Of a stretch of 29,391 nucleotides of DNA, positions 14,829 through 23,132 are shown in pieces (positions within the stretch are counted from its first letter, which is position 1; the number at the start of each line of letters is the position of its first letter). Origin of the DNA: Fimbriimonadales bacterium (GTDB lineage Bacteria; Armatimonadota; Fimbriimonadia; Fimbriimonadales; JABRVX01); the NCBI GenBank assembly GCA_045862955.1, contig BTVI01000037.1:1-29391 (forward strand), given 5' to 3'. A program made the position numbers and the translations under genes. The notes under the pieces were generated by a model that had not been told where the DNA came from, made no database searches, and saw nothing but the letters and a program-made list of their open reading frames with translations.

Positions 14829-15887
14829 CTAGTCTGCAGCTGTCGAGGTACCCGTTCTGATGCGCTGCGGCCCATTAGGCACCAGGGGGCTCATCAGAAT
14901 AGCTCCGATCGGCCCGTTCGCACCCTGTTGGGCCGCCGCAACGATCTGCCGCCGGTTGTTGATCCCGTTGGCTCCGCCGTATTGCACGTACCACTCTCCT
15001 TGGCTTGGATCAATGAGAGCCCCGAGCCCAAAGAGGCCGTACTCTACGAAGTGCACCGACGAGGTTGACATGTAGTAGTACTGCAACACATCCCCCCAGT
15101 CGTTGATGGCGGTGGCGCCGGTGGTAGTCGCACATCCCCCAGTGAACTCCCATCCAATACCCTGGCGGTACCGAATCGGAAACCTGCTGCATCCGGAGTA
15201 GCCTAGGATGTAGCCGCAGAAGTCGGCCCGGTTGTTGATGGCAGAGGCTACCATCCCCTGCCAGTTTCCCGGCGGCAGGGGAAAACTTACGATGTCACCG
15301 GTGTTCAGGTCTAGAATCCGGGGACCCGTAAGCAGAACCTGCCGATTGTCGTTCACGTCCGAAACAGGCGAGCCATCTCCCAAGCGTACTGCACCCTGCT
15401 GAGTGAAGATCACACCGGTTGACAGGTTCCAGCCCCAAAAGCCTGAACCACCCACGATGTCGCCGACGTTGTTGATTGCGTACGCTGCGCTGTATGGGTC
15501 GCCGGGCAGGCCACCCAAGACCTCTACTTCGTATCCATTCGCAGTAGGATGCCACACTGCGGCGGTTGGCTGCGAGATGACGTACTGGTTCGGGCATACG
15601 GCGCCCACGATGACGCCGGCGTCATTGATGTCGTACGCGCGTGAGGTCTGCATCCCTGGCGGTAACGGAAGGGCAACCAGTGGACCTCCGTTCTTCGACA
15701 CAGCGGCAAGGAGACTGGTGCCGTCCCCGAGTGATATGTTGCCGCAGACGACTCCAAGCTCGTTGATGCCCGTTCCCGTGGTTCCCGGGCCCAAGAACTG
15801 AACCCGGTACTTGGGCACGTCCGCATCCGCGCCCCATATCAGGCACGCACCGCCGATCAGCAGTAGCAATCGGGAAACCGTTGCCAT
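14829..15887 (-). CDS. Secreted protein with HAF-like extracellular beta repeats
   Basis: Signal peptide and repeated (A/G)INxxGxIVG units (GINELGVVCG, DINDAGVIVG, AINNVGDIVG, GINNRRQIVA). Confidence 0.85.
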   Translation of the reverse strand: MATVSRLLLLIGGACLIWGADADVPKYRVQFLGPGTTGTGINELGVVCGNISLGDGTSLLAAVSKNGGPLVALPLPPGMQTSRAYDINDAGVIVGAVCPNQYVISQPTAAVWHPTANGYEVEVLGGLPGDPYSAAYAINNVGDIVGGSGFWGWNLSTGVIFTQQGAVRLGDGSPVSDVNDNRQVLLTGPRILDLNTGDIVSFPLPPGNWQGMVASAINNRADFCGYILGYSGCSRFPIRYRQGIGWEFTGGCATTTGATAINDWGDVLQYYYMSTSSVHFVEYGLFGLGALIDPSQGEWYVQYGGANGINNRRQIVAAAQQGANGPIGAILMSPLVPNGPQRIRTGTSTAAD

Positions 15888-16004
15888 ACTCGTCCCCCCA
15901 AGTCGGTGCTCTTCTGCCATCGGGCTCCCGAGGGCCAGAGGCAACTGCACCCTTAGAACACGTTCGAGTCACCGTCGGCCGTCTCGGGATGTTGGTGCAC
16001 GACC

Positions 16005-16047
16005 ATTATCTCAGAATGGGCTGATCCGATCCGTGACTTTGGTCACA
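16005..16047 (-). promoter_or_regulatory. Class II Crp/Fnr-type activated promoter for the HAF-repeat gene
   Basis: Minus-strand TGTGA-CCAAAG-TCACG (16032-16047) and extended -10 TGaGATAAT (16005-16013). The box centre is 29.5 bp upstream of the -12 position, i.e. at -41.5. Confidence 0.7.
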
Positions 16048-16055
16048 CACCTTGC

Positions 16056-16745
16056 CTAGTTCTCACGGCCCGCCGTTCCTTCGGCAACTTCATGCAGCCG
16101 CTCGACGTCTGTCAGGCGGATGTGATTGCGAGAAAGCGATACGAGACCGCTATGTTCGAAATTCTTCAGCGTGCGACTCACTACCTCGCGTGCCGTGCCG
16201 AGGTCCGCGGCGATCTCTTCGTGCGTGGCGTGCACGAAGAAATCCCCTGGCCCTGCAGTTGCGCGACGCAGCAGGTAGCCCGCCAGCCTCGTAGTCACGG
16301 TCTCCAGCGCGACTTCCTGTACGAGCTGCAGAACTCCTACCAGCGTTTCGAACGCGGCCCCGAACAGAAAGTCGCGAAACGGACGGCAGTCTGCGAGTAG
16401 CAGTTGGACATGGTCGGGCCGCAACAGCACCATTTCGGTAGGCTCCTCAGAAACTGCACTCGCCACAGCTGGCCTACCAGTCAATACGGCAAGCGCATTG
16501 ACGATACAGAACTGACCCGCAGAGACTCGATAGAGCGTGAGTTCCTTGTCCCCGGAGCCGGTGCGATAGACACGCAGGCTCCCACAACCGATCAACGCGA
16601 ACCGGTCCAGCCTATCCGACTCTAGAAAGACGTGCTCCCCCTTTCCGAATGTTGCCCGAGCCGCTCCCTCTCTAATGCCTACCATCGTCCCGTCGGAACA
16701 CTGCCCGAACACGGGGAAGTGCCCAAGGATCTCTCCCACAGTCAT
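16056..16745 (-). CDS. Crp/Fnr family transcriptional regulator
   Basis: cNMP-binding beta-roll (GSLRVYRTGSGDKELTLYRV) and HTH THEEIAADLGTAREVVSRTLKNF. Confidence 0.95.
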   Translation of the reverse strand: MTVGEILGHFPVFGQCSDGTMVGIREGAARATFGKGEHVFLESDRLDRFALIGCGSLRVYRTGSGDKELTLYRVSAGQFCIVNALAVLTGRPAVASAVSEEPTEMVLLRPDHVQLLLADCRPFRDFLFGAAFETLVGVLQLVQEVALETVTTRLAGYLLRRATAGPGDFFVHATHEEIAADLGTAREVVSRTLKNFEHSGLVSLSRNHIRLTDVERLHEVAEGTAGREN

Positions 16746-16830
16746 AGGCAGGCTATTACGTCGCCGCGGCCTGGCTCCCTGCCTGTCGTTCAGAACCAAC
16801 CGCGAGCAGATGGGCTCGGAGCGGTGCGGC

Positions 16831-17286
16831 CTAGCGTCGCTGATCGGCCCTCCTAACGAGGCCTCTCAAAAGGTTCATCTGGCCGAGGTGGTACGAAACG
16901 TGGACGAGGATGCGGATCAGCGTCTCGATGGCTTCCTGATCCGAAACCATCTCGTGGTCGAACGGCTCACTCGCCGCGATGCGCCGAGCCTCCTGCAACC
17001 CCTCGAGCAGTCGTTTCTTCAGCGCGTGCCACTCGCTCGGGTCCGGCACGCGAAAGTCGTTGTTCCACTCCGACGGGCCCGCCTTCCGTCGCCCACCTGC
17101 GAGTTTCTGCAACCAGAAGTCCTGCCACAGAACGGCGTGCGCGAGGTTCGTCAGAATCGAATAAGGCGCACCCGCTGGCACTGCCGCCCGCTTGTCCTCG
17201 CGCACTCGCAACACGCCTGCCGGGGTCGGGATGTCCCAGCCCTGCAGGATCTGGTCGAACTGCATCACTAAGGGCGTACGGTTCAT
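16831..17286 (-). CDS. DinB/YfiT-like family protein
   Basis: YSILTNLAHAVLWQDFW and HVSYHLGQM metal-binding histidine motifs. Confidence 0.9.
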   Translation of the reverse strand: MNRTPLVMQFDQILQGWDIPTPAGVLRVREDKRAAVPAGAPYSILTNLAHAVLWQDFWLQKLAGGRRKAGPSEWNNDFRVPDPSEWHALKKRLLEGLQEARRIAASEPFDHEMVSDQEAIETLIRILVHVSYHLGQMNLLRGLVRRADQRR

Positions 17287-17371
17287 GCCTGCAGCATAGC
17301 AGACCGAACTTCGCCTCTGCGCCGACGTGGCACCAGGCGTCGGTTCGTCTCGAGGTCCGCGAACGAAGAGG

Positions 17372-19141
17372 TCAAGCTCTTCCGACAGCAACCGCCCTGC
17401 TCGCGCGCTCTGCAAGCTGGTGGAGGAGCACTCGTTCGCGTTCGAGTGCGGCAAGCTCCGCCTCGAGAGCAGAGGACCTCGCCTGCCTCTGGCGGGCAAG
17501 TTGCTCCACTGCCTCCGTGATCGCCTGTTCAGTCTCGGCTGCGCGCTCGACTAGCTCCTGCGCGCACTTCTTCACCGTGGGTTCGATGCGTCGCACGAAG
17601 TCGTAGCGGATCCGGCCGCAGCTCATCTCGAACATCTCCCACAGCTTCGCTGTCACCGTGCGTTCGATCCACCTGCGCACAAACCGGGCCGGCAAGAAGC
17701 GCGCAATGATCCAAGCCTCCGGGCTAAGATGGACTTCCGCCTGCCAGCGAGCAAGCGAGAAGCGACTTCTGTCCGTCAGGCCTCCTCGGATGGCGAAGGA
17801 CTTCAACTGCACGCCGAAGGCGTCGGATGCCGCTTCATGAATCCCTTGGAGCGATGAGTCCATCTGCTGTGAGAACTCCTCGAGGACGCCTTCGAGACGG
17901 GCGTTGATCCGAACCTCCTCCTCCTGCCGCCAGGCGCCGAGGATGTTGTCTACGGTGTCGGCGATGCTTCTGCTTGCCTGCTGGAACGCTGCAGCCGCCG
18001 TAACTCTTGGTCCTACGTTGTCGAGGAAGGCCTTGAGCCTCACCAAGGCGTTGGGAAACTCCGCCCGCTTCAGTACCTCCAAGTCTTGCTCCACGGAAGC
18101 AACCAGGTCCTGACGGCTCTTCTCGCACAGCAGGAACAGGTTGCGCTCGCGCTCGGCGCGGAGCTTCTCGAGACGTGTAGTGAAAATGGTGAGACGGCTC
18201 TGAATCTCTTCGAAGGGCGTGGTCAGCACAGCCTGCTGGAGTGACAGCCTGGTACTCAGCACTTCCTCTGCTGCAGTAACCGTTCGCCGCGCAGACTGCA
18301 ATGCGACGGCGGCGCGCTCCGTCTGCAGGAAATCTGTTACCATGGCAACCAGGTTGCCAAAGCCACTCGCTTCGACCAGGTCGCCCCTGTACTTAGTAGT
18401 ACCCTCTAGGGCAAGCTTCGAAGATACTGCTATCACGGGCAGTGTTAGGTCGAGGCGCTCACGGATCGCCTCTCGGGTAAAGTCCAGCGCCTGCTCCAAC
18501 TCCGCCGGCGCCAACCTGTCCGCCTTGTTAACTACCACGAAAACACGTGGTACCTGTTCGCACACGGTCTGGAGGAACGTTGCTTCGGCGTCGCTCATGG
18601 GAGGATCCGACGACAGTACGAAGAGAGCTGCGTCGGCACTCGATAGAAACCCCCGCGCTGTCGCGGTGTTGTGAAGAAAGATGGAACCGGTGCCCGGAGT
18701 GTCAATGAGCTGCAGTCCGTCCGCCAGAATGGGAGCCGGCACCGAGACGACGGCGTGGTCTACCCCCTTCTCGTTGTCTGGATTGCCCAACTCCGTGATG
18801 TACTGCGGCAGATCTTCGACTGCAATCTCCGTGCCGGTCCGGTCCAGTTTCACTATACGAGCCGACAGCTCCCTTCCATAGCGCACGATGGTGATCGCAG
18901 ATGTCAGGGGTGTCAAGGCTGTCGGCAGCACTTCATGACCGATGAGGGCGTTGACCAGAGTACTCTTCCCACGCTTGAACTCGCCGAAGACCACCAAGTT
19001 GAAACGGTGTTCGGCGAGGCGAGCGCTCGTTCCGCGAAGGACCTCCGCTAAATGGCGCTCGGTGTGCCGATCTGCCAGGGATGCGAGCTGGTCGAGTACT
19101 TCCCGAAGCTCTCCCGCTGCAGTTGCGTGAGCCCCCATCAT
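17372..19141 (-). CDS. Bacterial dynamin-like GTPase (dynamin family protein)
   Basis: G1 GEFKRGKS, G2 LPTALTPLT, G3 LIDTPG and G4 VNKAD, followed by a long helical stalk. Confidence 0.93.
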   Translation of the reverse strand: MMGAHATAAGELREVLDQLASLADRHTERHLAEVLRGTSARLAEHRFNLVVFGEFKRGKSTLVNALIGHEVLPTALTPLTSAITIVRYGRELSARIVKLDRTGTEIAVEDLPQYITELGNPDNEKGVDHAVVSVPAPILADGLQLIDTPGTGSIFLHNTATARGFLSSADAALFVLSSDPPMSDAEATFLQTVCEQVPRVFVVVNKADRLAPAELEQALDFTREAIRERLDLTLPVIAVSSKLALEGTTKYRGDLVEASGFGNLVAMVTDFLQTERAAVALQSARRTVTAAEEVLSTRLSLQQAVLTTPFEEIQSRLTIFTTRLEKLRAERERNLFLLCEKSRQDLVASVEQDLEVLKRAEFPNALVRLKAFLDNVGPRVTAAAAFQQASRSIADTVDNILGAWRQEEEVRINARLEGVLEEFSQQMDSSLQGIHEAASDAFGVQLKSFAIRGGLTDRSRFSLARWQAEVHLSPEAWIIARFLPARFVRRWIERTVTAKLWEMFEMSCGRIRYDFVRRIEPTVKKCAQELVERAAETEQAITEAVEQLARQRQARSSALEAELAALERERVLLHQLAERASRAVAVGRA

Positions 19142-19206
19142 GGCGGACCGCCCCCTTCGGCGAATGCCAGGTGCCCATTCGGGGGCATCGAGATGTACAC
19201 AAACAT
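19138..19206 (-). CDS. Putative 22-aa leader peptide (MFVYISMPPNGHLAFAEGGGPP) coupled to the dynamin gene
   Basis: AGGAG SD 9 nt upstream of ATG 19206. Its TGA overlaps the dynamin ATG (ATGA). It is too short for the ORF track. Confidence 0.5.
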   Translation of the reverse strand: MFVYISMPPNGHLAFAEGGGPP

Positions 19207-19218
19207 TAGCTACGGCTC

Positions 19219-19857
19219 CTATCTGATCGTGCTTGTAGACAGACGCTCAGGAGCCATCAGCCTCGGCGGCGGTTCTCCCCACGGAATGGGAAGGCAGTCC
19301 TCCATTGCCTTTAACTTATTGTACGCCATGTCCGCTCCTCTCATCAGTCTCGACCCATGGGGAGCCACGCACCAGCCTAAGATCTGAGCCGGACTAGGCG
19401 AAGGAAAACTCGTAGGGCCTCTGCGAGCGCACAAGACGGACTGCCCGCCAACGCACACGAGTGCGAGCAGAATGCCCAGCAGCACCGGCACAATGCATCC
19501 CCGCAGACCCGAGGTCCGAAGGATCCAATAGGCACCCGACGTCAGGTTCTCGACCACCACGACTCTGTCGTTGCGAAAGGCGAGCAGCACCAAGTCTCCT
19601 CGACCCAGTTCGATCTCGCTCCCTGCATGGTCTCTGAACAAGAAGACCCTTCCCAGGCGTGAACCGCTGAGAATCACGGCGTGCGTTGACTTGTCTCCTG
19701 CTCGCCGCTCCCACGCCATGGCCACGGTGCCCGCGTAAGCTCGGAACACTGCATCGCACTTTCCGCACCGGTAGTACGTCGTCTCAGCCGGTCTTACCTC
19801 CGCTGCCATCTCGGCATGACACTCGGGGCACACGAGCCAGCTATCGCTTGCCGTCAC
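19219..19857 (-). CDS. Hypothetical zinc-ribbon membrane protein
   Basis: CPEC..CGKC at the N-terminus, a beta-rich middle and one TM helix (IVPVLLGILLALVCV). GGGGA RBS before GTG. The C-terminal tail overlaps the riboswitch. Confidence 0.7.
   Translation of the reverse strand: MTASDSWLVCPECHAEMAAEVRPAETTYYRCGKCDAVFRAYAGTVAMAWERRAGDKSTHAVILSGSRLGRVFLFRDHAGSEIELGRGDLVLLAFRNDRVVVVENLTSGAYWILRTSGLRGCIVPVLLGILLALVCVGGQSVLCARRGPTSFPSPSPAQILGWCVAPHGSRLMRGADMAYNKLKAMEDCLPIPWGEPPPRLMAPERLSTSTIR
19248..19311 (-). ncRNA. Fluoride riboswitch (crcB motif), variant
   Basis: Minus strand AAGGCAATGGAGGACTGCCTT...GAACCGCCGCCGAGGCTGATGGCTCCTG. P1 is AAGGCA/TGCCTT, with an AACC linker, a GCC/GGC stem, GCTGATG, and the GGAG/CTCC pseudoknot. 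It starts ~7 nt after a TACAAT -10. Confidence 0.8.
19318..19323 (-). promoter_or_regulatory. -10 element (TACAAT) for the riboswitch-dynamin transcript
   Basis: AT-rich patch positioned so that +1 falls at the aptamer 5' end. Confidence 0.6.
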
Positions 19858-19923
19858 GAGTTCCCCCGAGATTCGGTGGCTTGGGTGGCGGCATCCGTCT
19901 CCGGGAACGTGGTATCACGTGCC

Positions 19924-20301
19924 GTGGCTCTGACATGGTTCTGCCCCTACTGCTGGCGCGAGGTGTCCGAGGACGATGTAGGGTGCCCGCACTGCAACGC
20001 CAATCTTCGCACGCATCTCGACCTTCCGTACCAGCAGAAGCTCGTACTGGCTCTGAAGCACCCTCTGGCGCAGACGAGGATGACCGTCATTCGCTTGCTG
20101 GGCGAGCTCGGAGCTAAGGATGCCGTACCTGCTCTGGCGGAGCGCTTCAGCGAGACGAGCGATTACTACGAGCTGCGAGCCATCCTGACTGCGGCCCATA
20201 AGATCGAGGGAGACGAAGCTGCGGCACTGATTCGCGGTGCCCTGGATCACCCTTCCGCCCTGGTTCGTAGAGTGGCGCAGGCACTGCTCGAAGGGGAGTG
20301 A
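19924..20301 (+). CDS. Zinc-ribbon plus HEAT-repeat protein
   Basis: FCPYCW..CPHC followed by HEAT-like repeats (ALKHP..RMTVIRLLGELGAKDAVPAL; ALDHPSALVRRVAQALL). The start is uncertain. Confidence 0.85.
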   Translation: MALTWFCPYCWREVSEDDVGCPHCNANLRTHLDLPYQQKLVLALKHPLAQTRMTVIRLLGELGAKDAVPALAERFSETSDYYELRAILTAAHKIEGDEAAALIRGALDHPSALVRRVAQALLEGE

Positions 20302-20312
20302 GCGAGCCTCCA

Positions 20313-20954
20313 TCACCTCCGGCCCTCGTCCGCGACCGTTCTGGGCTGGCCACAGAGCTTCCTGAGCGCCTGCTTCCAGCTTCCCACCTCATCTCCCCAA
20401 GGCTCTCTCTGGTAACGATAGTCGTGGTGCCGGATAACGAGTTCTAGGGCTTCTGTCAGCGAGGCGAGTTTCGAGCGCTCGACCTTCGCGACCCACTCGG
20501 CGGTACCAGCATCGCAAAGCCGCAATAGCTCGGACAGGTGGGGGATGCAGAGCCCCTCCGAGGCCTCGTAGCGCGCACGCCAGGCAGGCTGGACTAGCAG
20601 CCGAGCCAGGTCCGCGCAGGTGCGCTTGGCGTGGTCCTCCATATCGGCGCAGATCGGGCATCGCCGGGTCGTCCGTCGTCCTCGGCCCAACTGCTGCACC
20701 TCGTGTAAGAGCAAGTCCTTGGCGATGATGGAGAGACCGAGCGGGTCGCCGAGCGTGATGTAATCCTCGAGGTGTGCGGTGCATAGGCCCCCCGAGTGCC
20801 GCAAGCGTGCTCGAACTGCCTCGTCGTTGACAAGTTCGTGAAACTGCGTTTCGATGCGCCGCTGGGCAGCAGCGCGAATCACCGTGCAGACTGGGCACCC
20901 CTCGTCCGACATCGCCTGTAGCAGGTCATCACGCAGGGGGCCGGTGTAGCTCAT
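20313..20954 (-). CDS. DUF6062-like protein (duplicated CPxC...GLCxxH zinc-binding module)
   Basis: GCPVC..GGLCTAH, CPIC..EGLCIPH and HDYRY..PWGDEVGSW. ATGA overlap with the upstream gene. Confidence 0.8.
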   Translation of the reverse strand: MSYTGPLRDDLLQAMSDEGCPVCTVIRAAAQRRIETQFHELVNDEAVRARLRHSGGLCTAHLEDYITLGDPLGLSIIAKDLLLHEVQQLGRGRRTTRRCPICADMEDHAKRTCADLARLLVQPAWRARYEASEGLCIPHLSELLRLCDAGTAEWVAKVERSKLASLTEALELVIRHHDYRYQREPWGDEVGSWKQALRKLCGQPRTVADEGRR

Positions 20955-21397
20955 TCATCCTTCCCTTCGGCCAGAAGGGCGGCCAGCCTGTCCGCAATGT
21001 CCCCGAATCTGTCTACCGCCTGTTGCAGCCGCTCGCAGGCGTGTGAGGGCGGGGACCCGTAGCGCTTTGCAACGCGTTGGGGCAGCAGTTCCGCATCAGC
21101 CTCATCATGCAGACCTTGGATCAGGACCCGAAGCCTTGCACGGGTGGTGTCTTCGGGCAGCGATGGACTGCCTTGGCCGCCGAAGAGGTCGCGGACAAGC
21201 CGGGTGAGTTCGCCAGAGAGCTCTTCGAGCATCTCGACGCACGCGCGGGGATCGCTCAGGGGAATGAAGATGCGGCCCCCATTGAGGGCATACCCGAGCG
21301 TAGCCATCATCTCCGCCTGCTCGAGTCGGCTCTGCAGGTATCTGCACGTGCTAAGAACGTGCAGGGCCCACGGCTCGGAGCTGTACTCGCTCATCAT
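20951..21397 (-). CDS. Hypothetical small all-helical protein
   Basis: 148-aa ORF of amphipathic helices directly downstream of a riboswitch and translationally coupled to DUF6062. Confidence 0.8.
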   Translation of the reverse strand: MMSEYSSEPWALHVLSTCRYLQSRLEQAEMMATLGYALNGGRIFIPLSDPRACVEMLEELSGELTRLVRDLFGGQGSPSLPEDTTRARLRVLIQGLHDEADAELLPQRVAKRYGSPPSHACERLQQAVDRFGDIADRLAALLAEGKDE

Positions 21398-21418
21398 CCA
21401 CCCCGCATCTGGCTCTCT

Positions 21419-21474
21419 GCAGGAGCTATCAGCAGGATCGCGGTTCAGCAGACGGCTCGGCGAGCTCCATCACC
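21419..21474 (-). ncRNA. Fluoride riboswitch (crcB motif), canonical
   Basis: Minus strand GGTGATGGAGCTCGCC-gagccgtctgct-GAACCGC-gatcct-GCTGATAGCTCCTGC. P1 is GGTGA/TCGCC, the pseudoknot is GGAGC/GCTCC, and AACCGC and GCTGAT are conserved. TAGAAT -10 at 21492-21497. Confidence 0.9.
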
Positions 21475-21520
21475 GGGTAGAGACCACCAGGATTCTACTC
21501 GATTCGCGCCTAAATGCAGC

Positions 21521-21964
21521 CTAGTAACTCATCAGCTTGGTACCCAGGTCCATCATCTTGTCCACCATTCCGGGATCGCCCGGCTTAGTGCCTTCGATCC
21601 AGCCGCTCATCGGTGTGATGCCGGCGCGCGTGCTGCACATGCCGCACACGTACACCTCGATGCCGTGGCTCATCGCCTTGCGAAGTGACTTCTGGGATTT
21701 AGCGAGCGCGCTCGGCACCTTCTTGGCGGCAGTGCGCACTCCGCGCACCTGGTAGAAGAGGGTGACGTCGTAGCCACGGCTCTTGGTGGCCTCGGCGTAG
21801 CTGATGGCCATTTCGTTCGCCCAGGGGTCGTCGGTCGTCACGGTTATGAAAAGCCGTCCCTTCCCGGAGCCTGCACCCTGGGCAGTCGCTCCTACCACGA
21901 TTGCCAGCGTGACCGCAGCACACGCGAGCAGGCCCAGGATCAAGGGGGTAAGTGTCTTCATCAT
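21521..21964 (-). CDS. Exported DsrE/DsrF-like family protein
   Basis: Signal peptide, DVTLFYQVRGV and GIEVYVCGMC. Start moved to ATG 21964, which has a GAAAGGGA RBS. Confidence 0.8.
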   Translation of the reverse strand: MMKTLTPLILGLLACAAVTLAIVVGATAQGAGSGKGRLFITVTTDDPWANEMAISYAEATKSRGYDVTLFYQVRGVRTAAKKVPSALAKSQKSLRKAMSHGIEVYVCGMCSTRAGITPMSGWIEGTKPGDPGMVDKMMDLGTKLMSY

Positions 21965-22094
21965 ACTTTCCCTTTCGACGGTCTGCCCCCGAGCCTCCTT
22001 CGTCAGAGGCTCGGAGCAGCGAGCGATAGCGACGTCCAGGTGGGTTGCCTCGTAGACTCCAGTACTGTCAGAAACGGTATCCAGGAGGCAATCC

Positions 22095-22703
22095 ATGACG
22101 AGACATTTCGCTCTCTTCGTTACTGTCGCGGCGGCCATCAATGCTTGCCAGGGTCTTGCGCAAACCAAGACGTTCACGGTGGGAGATGGTGGTGGCAAGG
22201 TGCCCCAGTCCGTCGTTGTCGAGAGCGTCGCCCAGTTCGAGAACTTCACGGGCAAGACTAACAAGGTCACGGGAACTCTGAAGATCGATCCGGCCAAAAA
22301 AACGGGAAGCGGCAAAGTAGTGATCGACGTCGCCAGTATCGACACGGGAATCCCGTTGCGGAACGAGCACATGCGCAGCGAGATGTGGCTGGACACGACG
22401 AAGTACCCACAGGCCGTGTTCGAGGCAACCAGCGTCAAGCATAAGACGGGCGACGTCTACACGGTCAGCGGAAAGCTCACCTTCCACGGCGTGACCAAAG
22501 CTATCACCACGGAAGTGACCGGCAAGTATGTCAAGGCGAACGAGCAGACCCGCAAGGCCGGGTTCAAGGGAGACGTCGTCAGGCTGCGGGGGTCATTCGA
22601 CCTCAAACTTGCAGACTACGGCGTCAAGATACCTGAGCGAGCAGTGGGCAAAGTCGCTGAAACCGTGAAGATCAGTTTCGACTTCTACGGGTATACAGGC
22701 TAG
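22095..22703 (+). CDS. YceI family protein
   Basis: Signal peptide, IDVASIDTGIPLRNEHMRS, GKLTFHGVTK and DYGVK. AGGAGG RBS. Confidence 0.95.
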   Translation: MTRHFALFVTVAAAINACQGLAQTKTFTVGDGGGKVPQSVVVESVAQFENFTGKTNKVTGTLKIDPAKKTGSGKVVIDVASIDTGIPLRNEHMRSEMWLDTTKYPQAVFEATSVKHKTGDVYTVSGKLTFHGVTKAITTEVTGKYVKANEQTRKAGFKGDVVRLRGSFDLKLADYGVKIPERAVGKVAETVKISFDFYGYTG

Positions 22704-22709
22704 CAAGCC

Positions 22710-23132
22710 TTGAAGACCGTTGCGCGACTCTCTCGGGTCTTGGCAATCTTGTGCGCCGTCATCCTAGCCCTGGTGCTTGTCGTCGTGCCCCAGATCGCGT
22801 CGAGGGCAGTCCTTGCACAGCGGGTTCGTGTGCCGAGCGGCGAGATAGCAGCCATTTTCGGGGATGAGCCGACTCCGGTCGGCTCCCCCCAGAAGCTGAT
22901 CATCACCGACGAGAAGGCGTTCCTGCCTGGCAGGATCGAGGGGGGTGTTCGCTTAGTGGACGAGGGCTACCTGGAGCGCACCGGCACCTATCCGTTGCAG
23001 CTCAAGACCGTCCAGTTCCTCGGCAGCCTCGTGGGTTGGGGCAGCGCCACTGGCCTCGTGGTATTCGGCTTGGTCGCCTTCTCTGCAGGCCGCAGGGCTC
23101 GAGCCAACCCGTCCGGCGACTCGAGCCCCTGA
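22710..23132 (+). CDS. Hypothetical membrane protein (two TM segments)
   Basis: N- and C-terminal hydrophobic helices. Starts 6 nt after yceI on the same strand. Confidence 0.7.
   Translation: MKTVARLSRVLAILCAVILALVLVVVPQIASRAVLAQRVRVPSGEIAAIFGDEPTPVGSPQKLIITDEKAFLPGRIEGGVRLVDEGYLERTGTYPLQLKTVQFLGSLVGWGSATGLVVFGLVAFSAGRRARANPSGDSSP

Follow-up and report, generated by a model that had tools for sequence, protein, structure and literature searches.

A dynamin-like GTPase under fluoride riboswitch control: a likely undescribed, probably membrane-directed arm of bacterial fluoride defence

What does a bacterium switch on in response to fluoride if its genome encodes neither of the two known fluoride exporters, Fluc/CrcB and CLC-F? 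This question is raised by contig BTVI01000037.1 (assembly GCA_045862955.1) of a Fimbriimonadales bacterium of the phylum Armatimonadota, whose 29,391 nucleotides, termed the window below, carry two fluoride riboswitches (Rfam family RF01734), one heading a bacterial dynamin-like GTPase and the other an unnamed helical protein together with a DUF6062 protein. A sequence-only reading of the window had proposed that these three genes and two cysteine-rich neighbours constitute a fluoride-induced stress module. As judged by comparison of loci, the pairing of dynamin and riboswitch is real and widespread, while its function is a proposal. Since the switches are real, gene fusions join the partners and no known exporter is found in the genome, the module is likely an undescribed arm of fluoride defence, and probably a membrane-directed one.

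The elements that carry the argument all lie on the minus strand. In the following lines and throughout, G000 denotes the source genome of the window and G001 a genome of the same genus used for comparison.

21492..21497, minus strand: -10-like hexamer 5' of riboswitch 1, from sequence; also in G001
21413..21483, minus strand: fluoride riboswitch 1 (RF01734), Rfam 37.7 bits, E 3.5e-7, extra insert after P1
21401..21407, minus strand: G-rich tract resembling a Shine-Dalgarno (SD) sequence, switch 1; predicted pairing with the 3' pseudoknot strand of the aptamer
20951..21397, minus strand: helical protein, 148 aa, unnamed family, first gene under switch 1; dN/dS 0.43
20313..20954, minus strand: DUF6062 protein, 213 aa; PF19538 79.3 bits (cut-off 27); dN/dS 0.19
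19318..19323, minus strand: -10-like hexamer 5' of riboswitch 2, identical in G001
19241..19318, minus strand: fluoride riboswitch 2 (RF01734), Rfam 38.2 bits, E 2.4e-7, inserted hairpin and shorter pseudoknot
19138..19220, minus strand: predicted sequestered SD (19220-19216) and 22-codon leader open reading frame (ORF; 19206-19138), switch 2
17372..19141, minus strand: bacterial dynamin-like GTPase, 589 aa, BDLP/IniA-like; Dynamin_N (PF00350) 90.4 bits, above the Pfam cut-off; dN/dS 0.14

Both aptamers named by the sequence-only reading were recovered above the gathering score of the RF01734 covariance model (34 bits). P1 and the second hairpin are paired in the Rfam alignment of each aptamer, and by sequence reading the pseudoknot comprises 6 bp in switch 1 and about 4 bp in switch 2. 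The aptamer cores differ from those of G001 in a single column each (1/54 in switch 1, 1/61 in switch 2), within a block of approximately 10 kb that is 85% identical overall. As their class assignment implies, the riboswitches likely bind fluoride and turn expression on. The -10 elements proposed to precede the aptamers are present as hexamers and kept in G001, but a sigma-70 scan called no complete promoter in 16000-22500, and intrinsic terminators are not enriched (3 seen versus 3.9 expected in shuffled sequences).

The sequence-only reading also gave each switch an expression platform able to pair with an SD, and SD-occluding hairpins of this kind are predicted at the two switches, in G000 as well as in G001. 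In foldings of the platform alone, the mean unpaired probability of the switch 1 SD rises from 0.03 in the free RNA to 0.73 when the pseudoknot strand is blocked (0.02 to 0.61 in G001), and that of the switch 2 SD from 0.02 to 0.41 (0.00 to 0.58 in G001). At each switch, the OFF state would keep a ribosome-binding site hidden. At switch 2 this site belongs to the 22-codon leader ORF, the stop codon of which overlaps the second ATG of the dynamin gene; length and stop/start overlap are the same in G001. The leader shows a dN/dS of 0.90 and its peptide sequence therefore appears unconstrained, which suggests a coupling device rather than a peptide product. Among leaders of the family, 23 of 51 could be parsed by pattern and 15 showed an SD plus start; a few of the starts are in frame with the dynamin, the others opening short ORFs without clear overlap. 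RNA data consist of sparsely covering contigs that are uninformative on induction, and the single contig from each of two RNA studies over the switch 2 leader (19064-19280 and 19068-19292) is a weak hint at most.

The pairing was followed through a phylum set of 301 genomes and through metagenomes. Dynamin matches occur in 35 phylum genomes at E<=1e-20 and in 25 at E<=1e-39, and wide flanks were taken for the 20 best dynamin-bearing genomes other than G000. RF01734 scored above its cut-off at 17 of these 20 loci; of the remaining three, L075 holds two matches to our own riboswitch model, built from 15 aptamers, L073 stops at a contig edge and L063 has no match. An alignment of 65 sequences was used to scan metagenomes; the scan, covering 7 of 64 collection parts, gave 550 relatives, the best 80 of which form the metagenome loci considered here. 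Our own model matched at 63 of these 80, in 53 cases on the same strand and at most 500 nt upstream of the dynamin; at 30 bits or more the figures are 56 and 48, and of 12 loci selected because their scores were weak, 8 were confirmed by Rfam. The background is about 0.001 riboswitches per 9 kb (18 matches in 61 genomes, with a mean genome size assumed). At 90% identity 79 of the 80 metagenome dynamins fall into 75 clusters, 56 of which show a switch no more than 3.5 kb upstream, and at 50% identity into 14 clusters, 10 with such a switch. One switch-bearing locus encodes a dynamin that shares 93.7% identity with a protein carrying the label Desulfobaccales, and the linkage therefore reaches beyond the phylum. 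Among distant dynamin loci, none of five carries a riboswitch within 1.5 kb. The single distant locus found by a contig scan with one protein has no riboswitch, and a plasmid search gave six records, none over 80% of the query.

The company kept by the dynamin points in the same direction. Named by likeness to Pfam-annotated phylum proteins and by inspection, the neighbours in the 80 metagenome loci include MFS transporters (18), the CPA2 family of Na+/H+ exchangers (17), universal stress proteins (USP; 17), enolase (17), histidine phosphatase (15) and CrcB (8), and all of these apart from MFS are known fluoride genes. The comparison supports the proposed regulation well, and that the locus belongs to a real fluoride regulon is very probable.

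Some further arrangements around fluoride switches were observed. At least two riboswitch matches are present in 31 of the 80 metagenome loci, and divergent back-to-back pairs are common (L084:3960-4179, L152, L111, L118, L093, L147). One switch at L071:3481-7327 has behind it the dynamin gene, then a HAD-like gene and a pair of genes with MutS_V domains, which connects the GTPase with the MutS-like genes long associated with fluoride. A cyclopropane-fatty-acid-synthase-like gene (PF02353) lies in a fluoride operon 5' of crcB and dynamin (L076:10854-12065) and hints at membrane lipid change. Cytidylate-kinase-like genes (PF13189) recur directly under fluoride switches or near them (L057:790-1434, L073, L076), and an unnamed 95-aa family recurs in the orientation of the dynamin at 10 of the 80 metagenome loci (L108:5009-5296 and nine others).

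Between the two switches of the window lie two more genes, one of which belongs to a recurrent family.

19924..20301, plus strand: CxxC-CxxC and HEAT-repeat protein, about 125 aa; HEAT_2 35.6 bits, above the Pfam cut-off; dN/dS 0.37
19219..19857, minus strand: zinc-ribbon protein with one hydrophobic segment (zinc-membrane protein); dN/dS 0.20 over codons 1-140

The neighbourhood survey suggested by the sequence-only reading found members of four families, the dynamin, DUF6062, the helical protein and CxxC-HEAT, repeatedly in operons with fluoride riboswitches, and in many genomes. Near the dynamin, the helical family is found at 12 of 80 metagenome and 14 of 22 phylum loci (window and G001 included), DUF6062 at 8 of 80 and at least 12 of 22, and HEAT proteins at 15 of 80 metagenome loci, with both CxxC motifs in 12 of the proteins. 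Fusions link all four. DUF6062 is fused to the dynamin at L062, L072, L094 and L079; the dynamin of L063 carries a C-terminal helical domain (hhalign 96.5%, E 9e-10), while in P0321 the helical domain is N-terminal to the dynamin GTPase; and P0198 joins CxxC-HEAT to a helical domain, with P0190 as a partial form. DUF6062 occurs in 20 of 25 dynamin-bearing phylum genomes versus 38 of 276 others, a comparison in which related genomes are not independent, and a riboswitch-model match lies within about 1.5 kb in 15 of 30 DUF6062 loci. The zinc-membrane protein stands outside this recurrent pattern.

The assignment of switch 1 to the helical protein plus DUF6062 and of switch 2 to the GTPase stood, whereas the notion of a single five-gene fluoride-induced unit did not. 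The CxxC-HEAT and membrane proteins are indeed present between the switches, but the HEAT gene lies antisense, convergent with DUF6062, and the zinc-membrane gene starts divergently from it upstream of switch 2, its 3' end overlapping the promoter and aptamer of that switch. Both genes probably lie outside the control of either riboswitch here; with filters off, no third aptamer was found 5' of the HEAT gene and nothing else exceeded 7.2 bits in 15500-23000. Elsewhere, CxxC-HEAT homologues are co-oriented inside riboswitch operons. A 133-aa minus-strand ORF over the HEAT gene was rejected as a shadow (dN/dS 0.84 versus 0.37 for the HEAT frame). The zinc-membrane protein was found in G001 and, among the 301 phylum genomes, in G000 and in one marginal match (E 8.8e-4); its frame differs in G001 after about codon 181, and it is likely a lineage-specific, genus-restricted passenger. 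Purifying selection relative to G001 acts on all five proteins (dN/dS 0.14-0.43), and three of the five have paired Cys motifs, as had been read from the sequence.

DUF6062, whose start overlaps the stop of the helical gene, contains two CxxC...CxxH units with eight Cys/His residues invariant across 15 sequences, which are predicted zinc sites. Its structure model is all helical (pLDDT 90); Foldseek gave no match at E<=0.001 and the best VIA Z was 5.9, so these searches establish neither a known nor a new fold. The helical protein matched no Pfam or NCBIfam family, although its own family counts 1130 representatives at E<=1e-3; a close homologue bears the label Fimbriimonadia, and the best score of an atlas search (0.82) is a lead only. 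The idea that this family is a piece of the dynamin stalk was ruled out (hhalign 1%). Just 5' of switch 1 lies a DsrE-like gene (21521-21964), kept in G001 but not recurrent in other loci. Downstream of the dynamin, 16056-17286 holds a DinB-like gene, which is kept in G001, and a Crp-like gene, which is not; neither recurs elsewhere.

The GTPase is present in a single copy in G000. Its G1-G4 residues (G53-K59, T80, D147-G150, N205-D208) are invariant in 65 sequences, and its structure model (pLDDT 85.3) contains the neck and trunk helical bundles. IniA is the best Foldseek match (7.3e-24), followed by BDLP (1e-22), which is also the best HMM match (8.5e-48). Residues 470-496 form a conserved amphipathic tip, hydrophobic and basic, that aligns to BDLP from residue 583 onward. 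The GTPase resembles Nostoc BDLP (2j68) and Mycobacterium smegmatis IniA (6j72) in having GTPase, neck, trunk and a hydrophobic/basic trunk tip; IniA, as described in the parts of PMC6715688 that were available, is likewise stress-induced, severs membranes and contacts lipids with a basic loop located at the equivalent end of its trunk. Unlike these relatives, with which it shares about 20% identity, the GTPase is under riboswitch control and has small zinc, helical and HEAT partners in place of a second dynamin in the genome. Bacillus subtilis DynA, LeoABC of enterotoxigenic Escherichia coli, the Campylobacter DLP pair and CrfC belong to the same superfamily and give weak profile matches, yet the GTPase is neither two-headed nor paired and scores far under the NCBIfam cut-offs for DynA, LeoA and CrfC orthologues (70 versus 1600, 20 versus 325 and 23 versus 1146).

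The lack of an exporter gene in the window extends to the whole genome. G000 (97.55% complete) and G001 (98%) contain no CrcB or CLC match, and a tblastn search with four queries, three of them CrcB proteins and the fourth a CLC-F protein, gave the same result. Three RF01734 matches were found in G000, the third of which (53.3 bits; G000:C41:4414-5742, L004) adjoins an rRNA operon and heads a gene for a 411-aa CPA2-like protein (G000:C41:4507-5742), the sole G000 transporter under a fluoride switch; this gene and the dynamin gene are unlinked. A switch accompanies the dynamin locus in 20 genomes, in one of them by our own model alone. Both CrcB and CLC proteins of any kind are missing from 11 of the 20, and 10 of these 11 are at least 90% complete; CrcB is present in five. 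The description as a non-export arm is accordingly true of G000 but not of the family: crcB lies in the dynamin operon at 4 of 20 wide phylum loci and at least 8 of 80 metagenome loci, so that the module is not export-exclusive and supplements export no less often than it occurs alone. In 37 genomes chosen for riboswitch or dynamin, CPA2 is found in 15 of 19 that lack CrcB and CLC versus 6 of 18 with one (p 0.008, which overstates the difference because the groups are selected and related). At the level of the order, CPA2 is the gene behind the switch wherever both exporters are missing (8 genomes), and the remaining 5 genomes have crcB or CLC-F in that position. L163, L167 and L168 encode CLC proteins with a variant CLC-F C-terminal signature, for which fluoride specificity is a candidate property.

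We propose, with a probability of roughly one half, that the two switches govern a GTPase-centred complex whose translation is induced by fluoride and which acts on membranes and aids fluoride tolerance. Without fluoride, the 3' strand of the aptamer would pair with the SD; ligand-driven formation of the pseudoknot would free the SD and allow translation, and at switch 2 the leader ORF would hand ribosomes on to the dynamin. The fusions suggest that the helical protein, DUF6062 and CxxC-HEAT serve as accessory subunits of the GTPase, and a single physical complex is somewhat favoured. From its fold, the GTPase may bind the inner membrane via the hydrophobic and basic tip and may remodel or seal it, limiting the leak of weak acid and protons, alongside the riboswitch-controlled CPA2 antiporter. 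Since it is the fold alone that suggests membrane remodelling, a membrane-protective role is put at slightly less than even odds.

Several observations weigh against this proposal. Each aptamer exceeds the RF01734 cut-off by only about 4 bits, the pseudoknot of switch 2 is short, and 17 of 80 metagenome loci have no riboswitch match, several of them despite long upstream flanks (7 kb in some). Of the 80 metagenome loci, many of them short, just 25 have at least one partner (helical, HEAT or DUF6062), as do 16 of the 40 with at least 3 kb of downstream sequence. DUF6062 also lives apart, as 38 phylum genomes hold it without this dynamin. The Foldseek TM-scores to IniA and BDLP are just about 0.40, the GTPase lacks a transmembrane segment (hydropathy of the best 19-residue stretch 0.81), and the partners, being predicted soluble zinc and HEAT proteins, give no pointer to membranes.

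The last point is where a soluble role would begin: metal-fluoride might lock the GTPase dimer as a scaffold or second fluoride-metal sensor, with the partners relaying to protein quality control or metal handling. Some of the DUF6062 loci near a switch lack such a dynamin alongside, which fits; the retention of a full neck, trunk and conserved amphipathic tip does not, and we regard this role as improbable. GDP-metal-fluoride complexes trap GTPases, and the GTPase might simply be a poisoned enzyme with an unrelated routine job, overproduced like enolase or pyrophosphatase. The co-regulated genes are mostly phosphoryl-transfer enzymes, and cells are known to answer fluoride by raising the expression of enzymes that it inhibits, according to the available parts of PMC11139923 and PMC5533749. 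Yet the GTPase is a single-copy gene with close members in only the 25 phylum genomes noted above, and because it mostly lies directly behind the switch, no housekeeping copy is being backed up; compensation of this kind appears a shade less probable than the sensor.

Rather unlikely, too, is an unrecognised route of export, in which a CPA2-type (or MFS) protein expels fluoride and the GTPase complex organises the exporter or sheds fluoride-loaded vesicles. In its favour are the enrichment of CPA2 in exporter-less genomes, in which kin are not independent, its place behind the order-level switch, and the wide occurrence of exporters, which according to the sections of PMC11139923 consulted are found in more than 85% of surveyed genomes, the exceptions tending to be reduced symbionts. 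However, 4 of the 19 exporter-less genomes have no CPA2 by the query used, CPA2 co-occurs with crcB as well and is unlinked to the dynamin in G000, and the same sections take Na+/H+ antiporters under fluoride switches as serving pH homeostasis. The boldest form of the argument, that many free-living bacteria without Fluc or CLC-F employ a riboswitch-induced machine of four parts (the GTPase, DUF6062, the helical protein as adaptor and CxxC-HEAT) to remodel the inner membrane, and with it CPA2 as a third type of fluoride exporter in bacteria, is doubtful. Finally, the patchy distribution and rearranged gene order would suit functionless passengers on mobile fluoride islands, and the inserted hairpins and modest scores would suit aptamer variants with another ligand; given the switch directly 5' of the dynamin across the tree, the purifying selection, and crcB, enolase and USP in the same operons, both are very improbable. 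The membrane-acting, fluoride-induced GTPase complex remains the preferred reading.

Neither the class of RNA nor the dynamin superfamily is new. The closest known relatives of the locus are fluoride riboswitch regulons such as ppaC-uspA-eno-gpmA-crcB-orf5249 of Enterobacter cloacae FRM (PMC5533749, seen in part), which share the RNA class and some gene content, in that relatives of the locus carry USP, enolase, phosphoglycerate-mutase-like, CrcB and Na+/H+ antiporter genes. In contrast to that operon, the switches described here precede genes for a dynamin-like GTPase, a DUF6062 protein and a member of an unnamed helical family in a genome without Fluc or CLC. The available portions of the fluoride-regulon gene lists in PMC11139923, PMC2864571 and PMC5533749 contain no dynamin-like GTPase, DUF6062 or helical family, and the terms "dynamin" and "COG0699" are absent from the eight supplements of PMC2864571 that could be read. 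No paper joining a fluoride riboswitch with a dynamin-like GTPase was found, the gene tables of Baker 2012 and Breaker 2012, which may list a GTPase, being outside the coverage; nor did the literature search find one on a fluoride riboswitch and a CPA2 antiporter, or the searched library one naming DUF6062, whose Pfam entry PF19538 has no function on record.

Bacterial dynamins mostly lack a defined trigger, and this subfamily comes with a ligand switch, so that its role can be tested with NaF. The association also provides first leads for DUF6062, for the unnamed helical family with its more than 1000 clusters and for the CxxC-HEAT family. Near-complete genomes of 3-5 Mb sense fluoride yet lack both exporters, a state that a 2024 review, in the parts available, considers typical of reduced symbionts. 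The findings may thus bear on the fluoride tolerance of wastewater microbes and of organofluorine-degrading strains.

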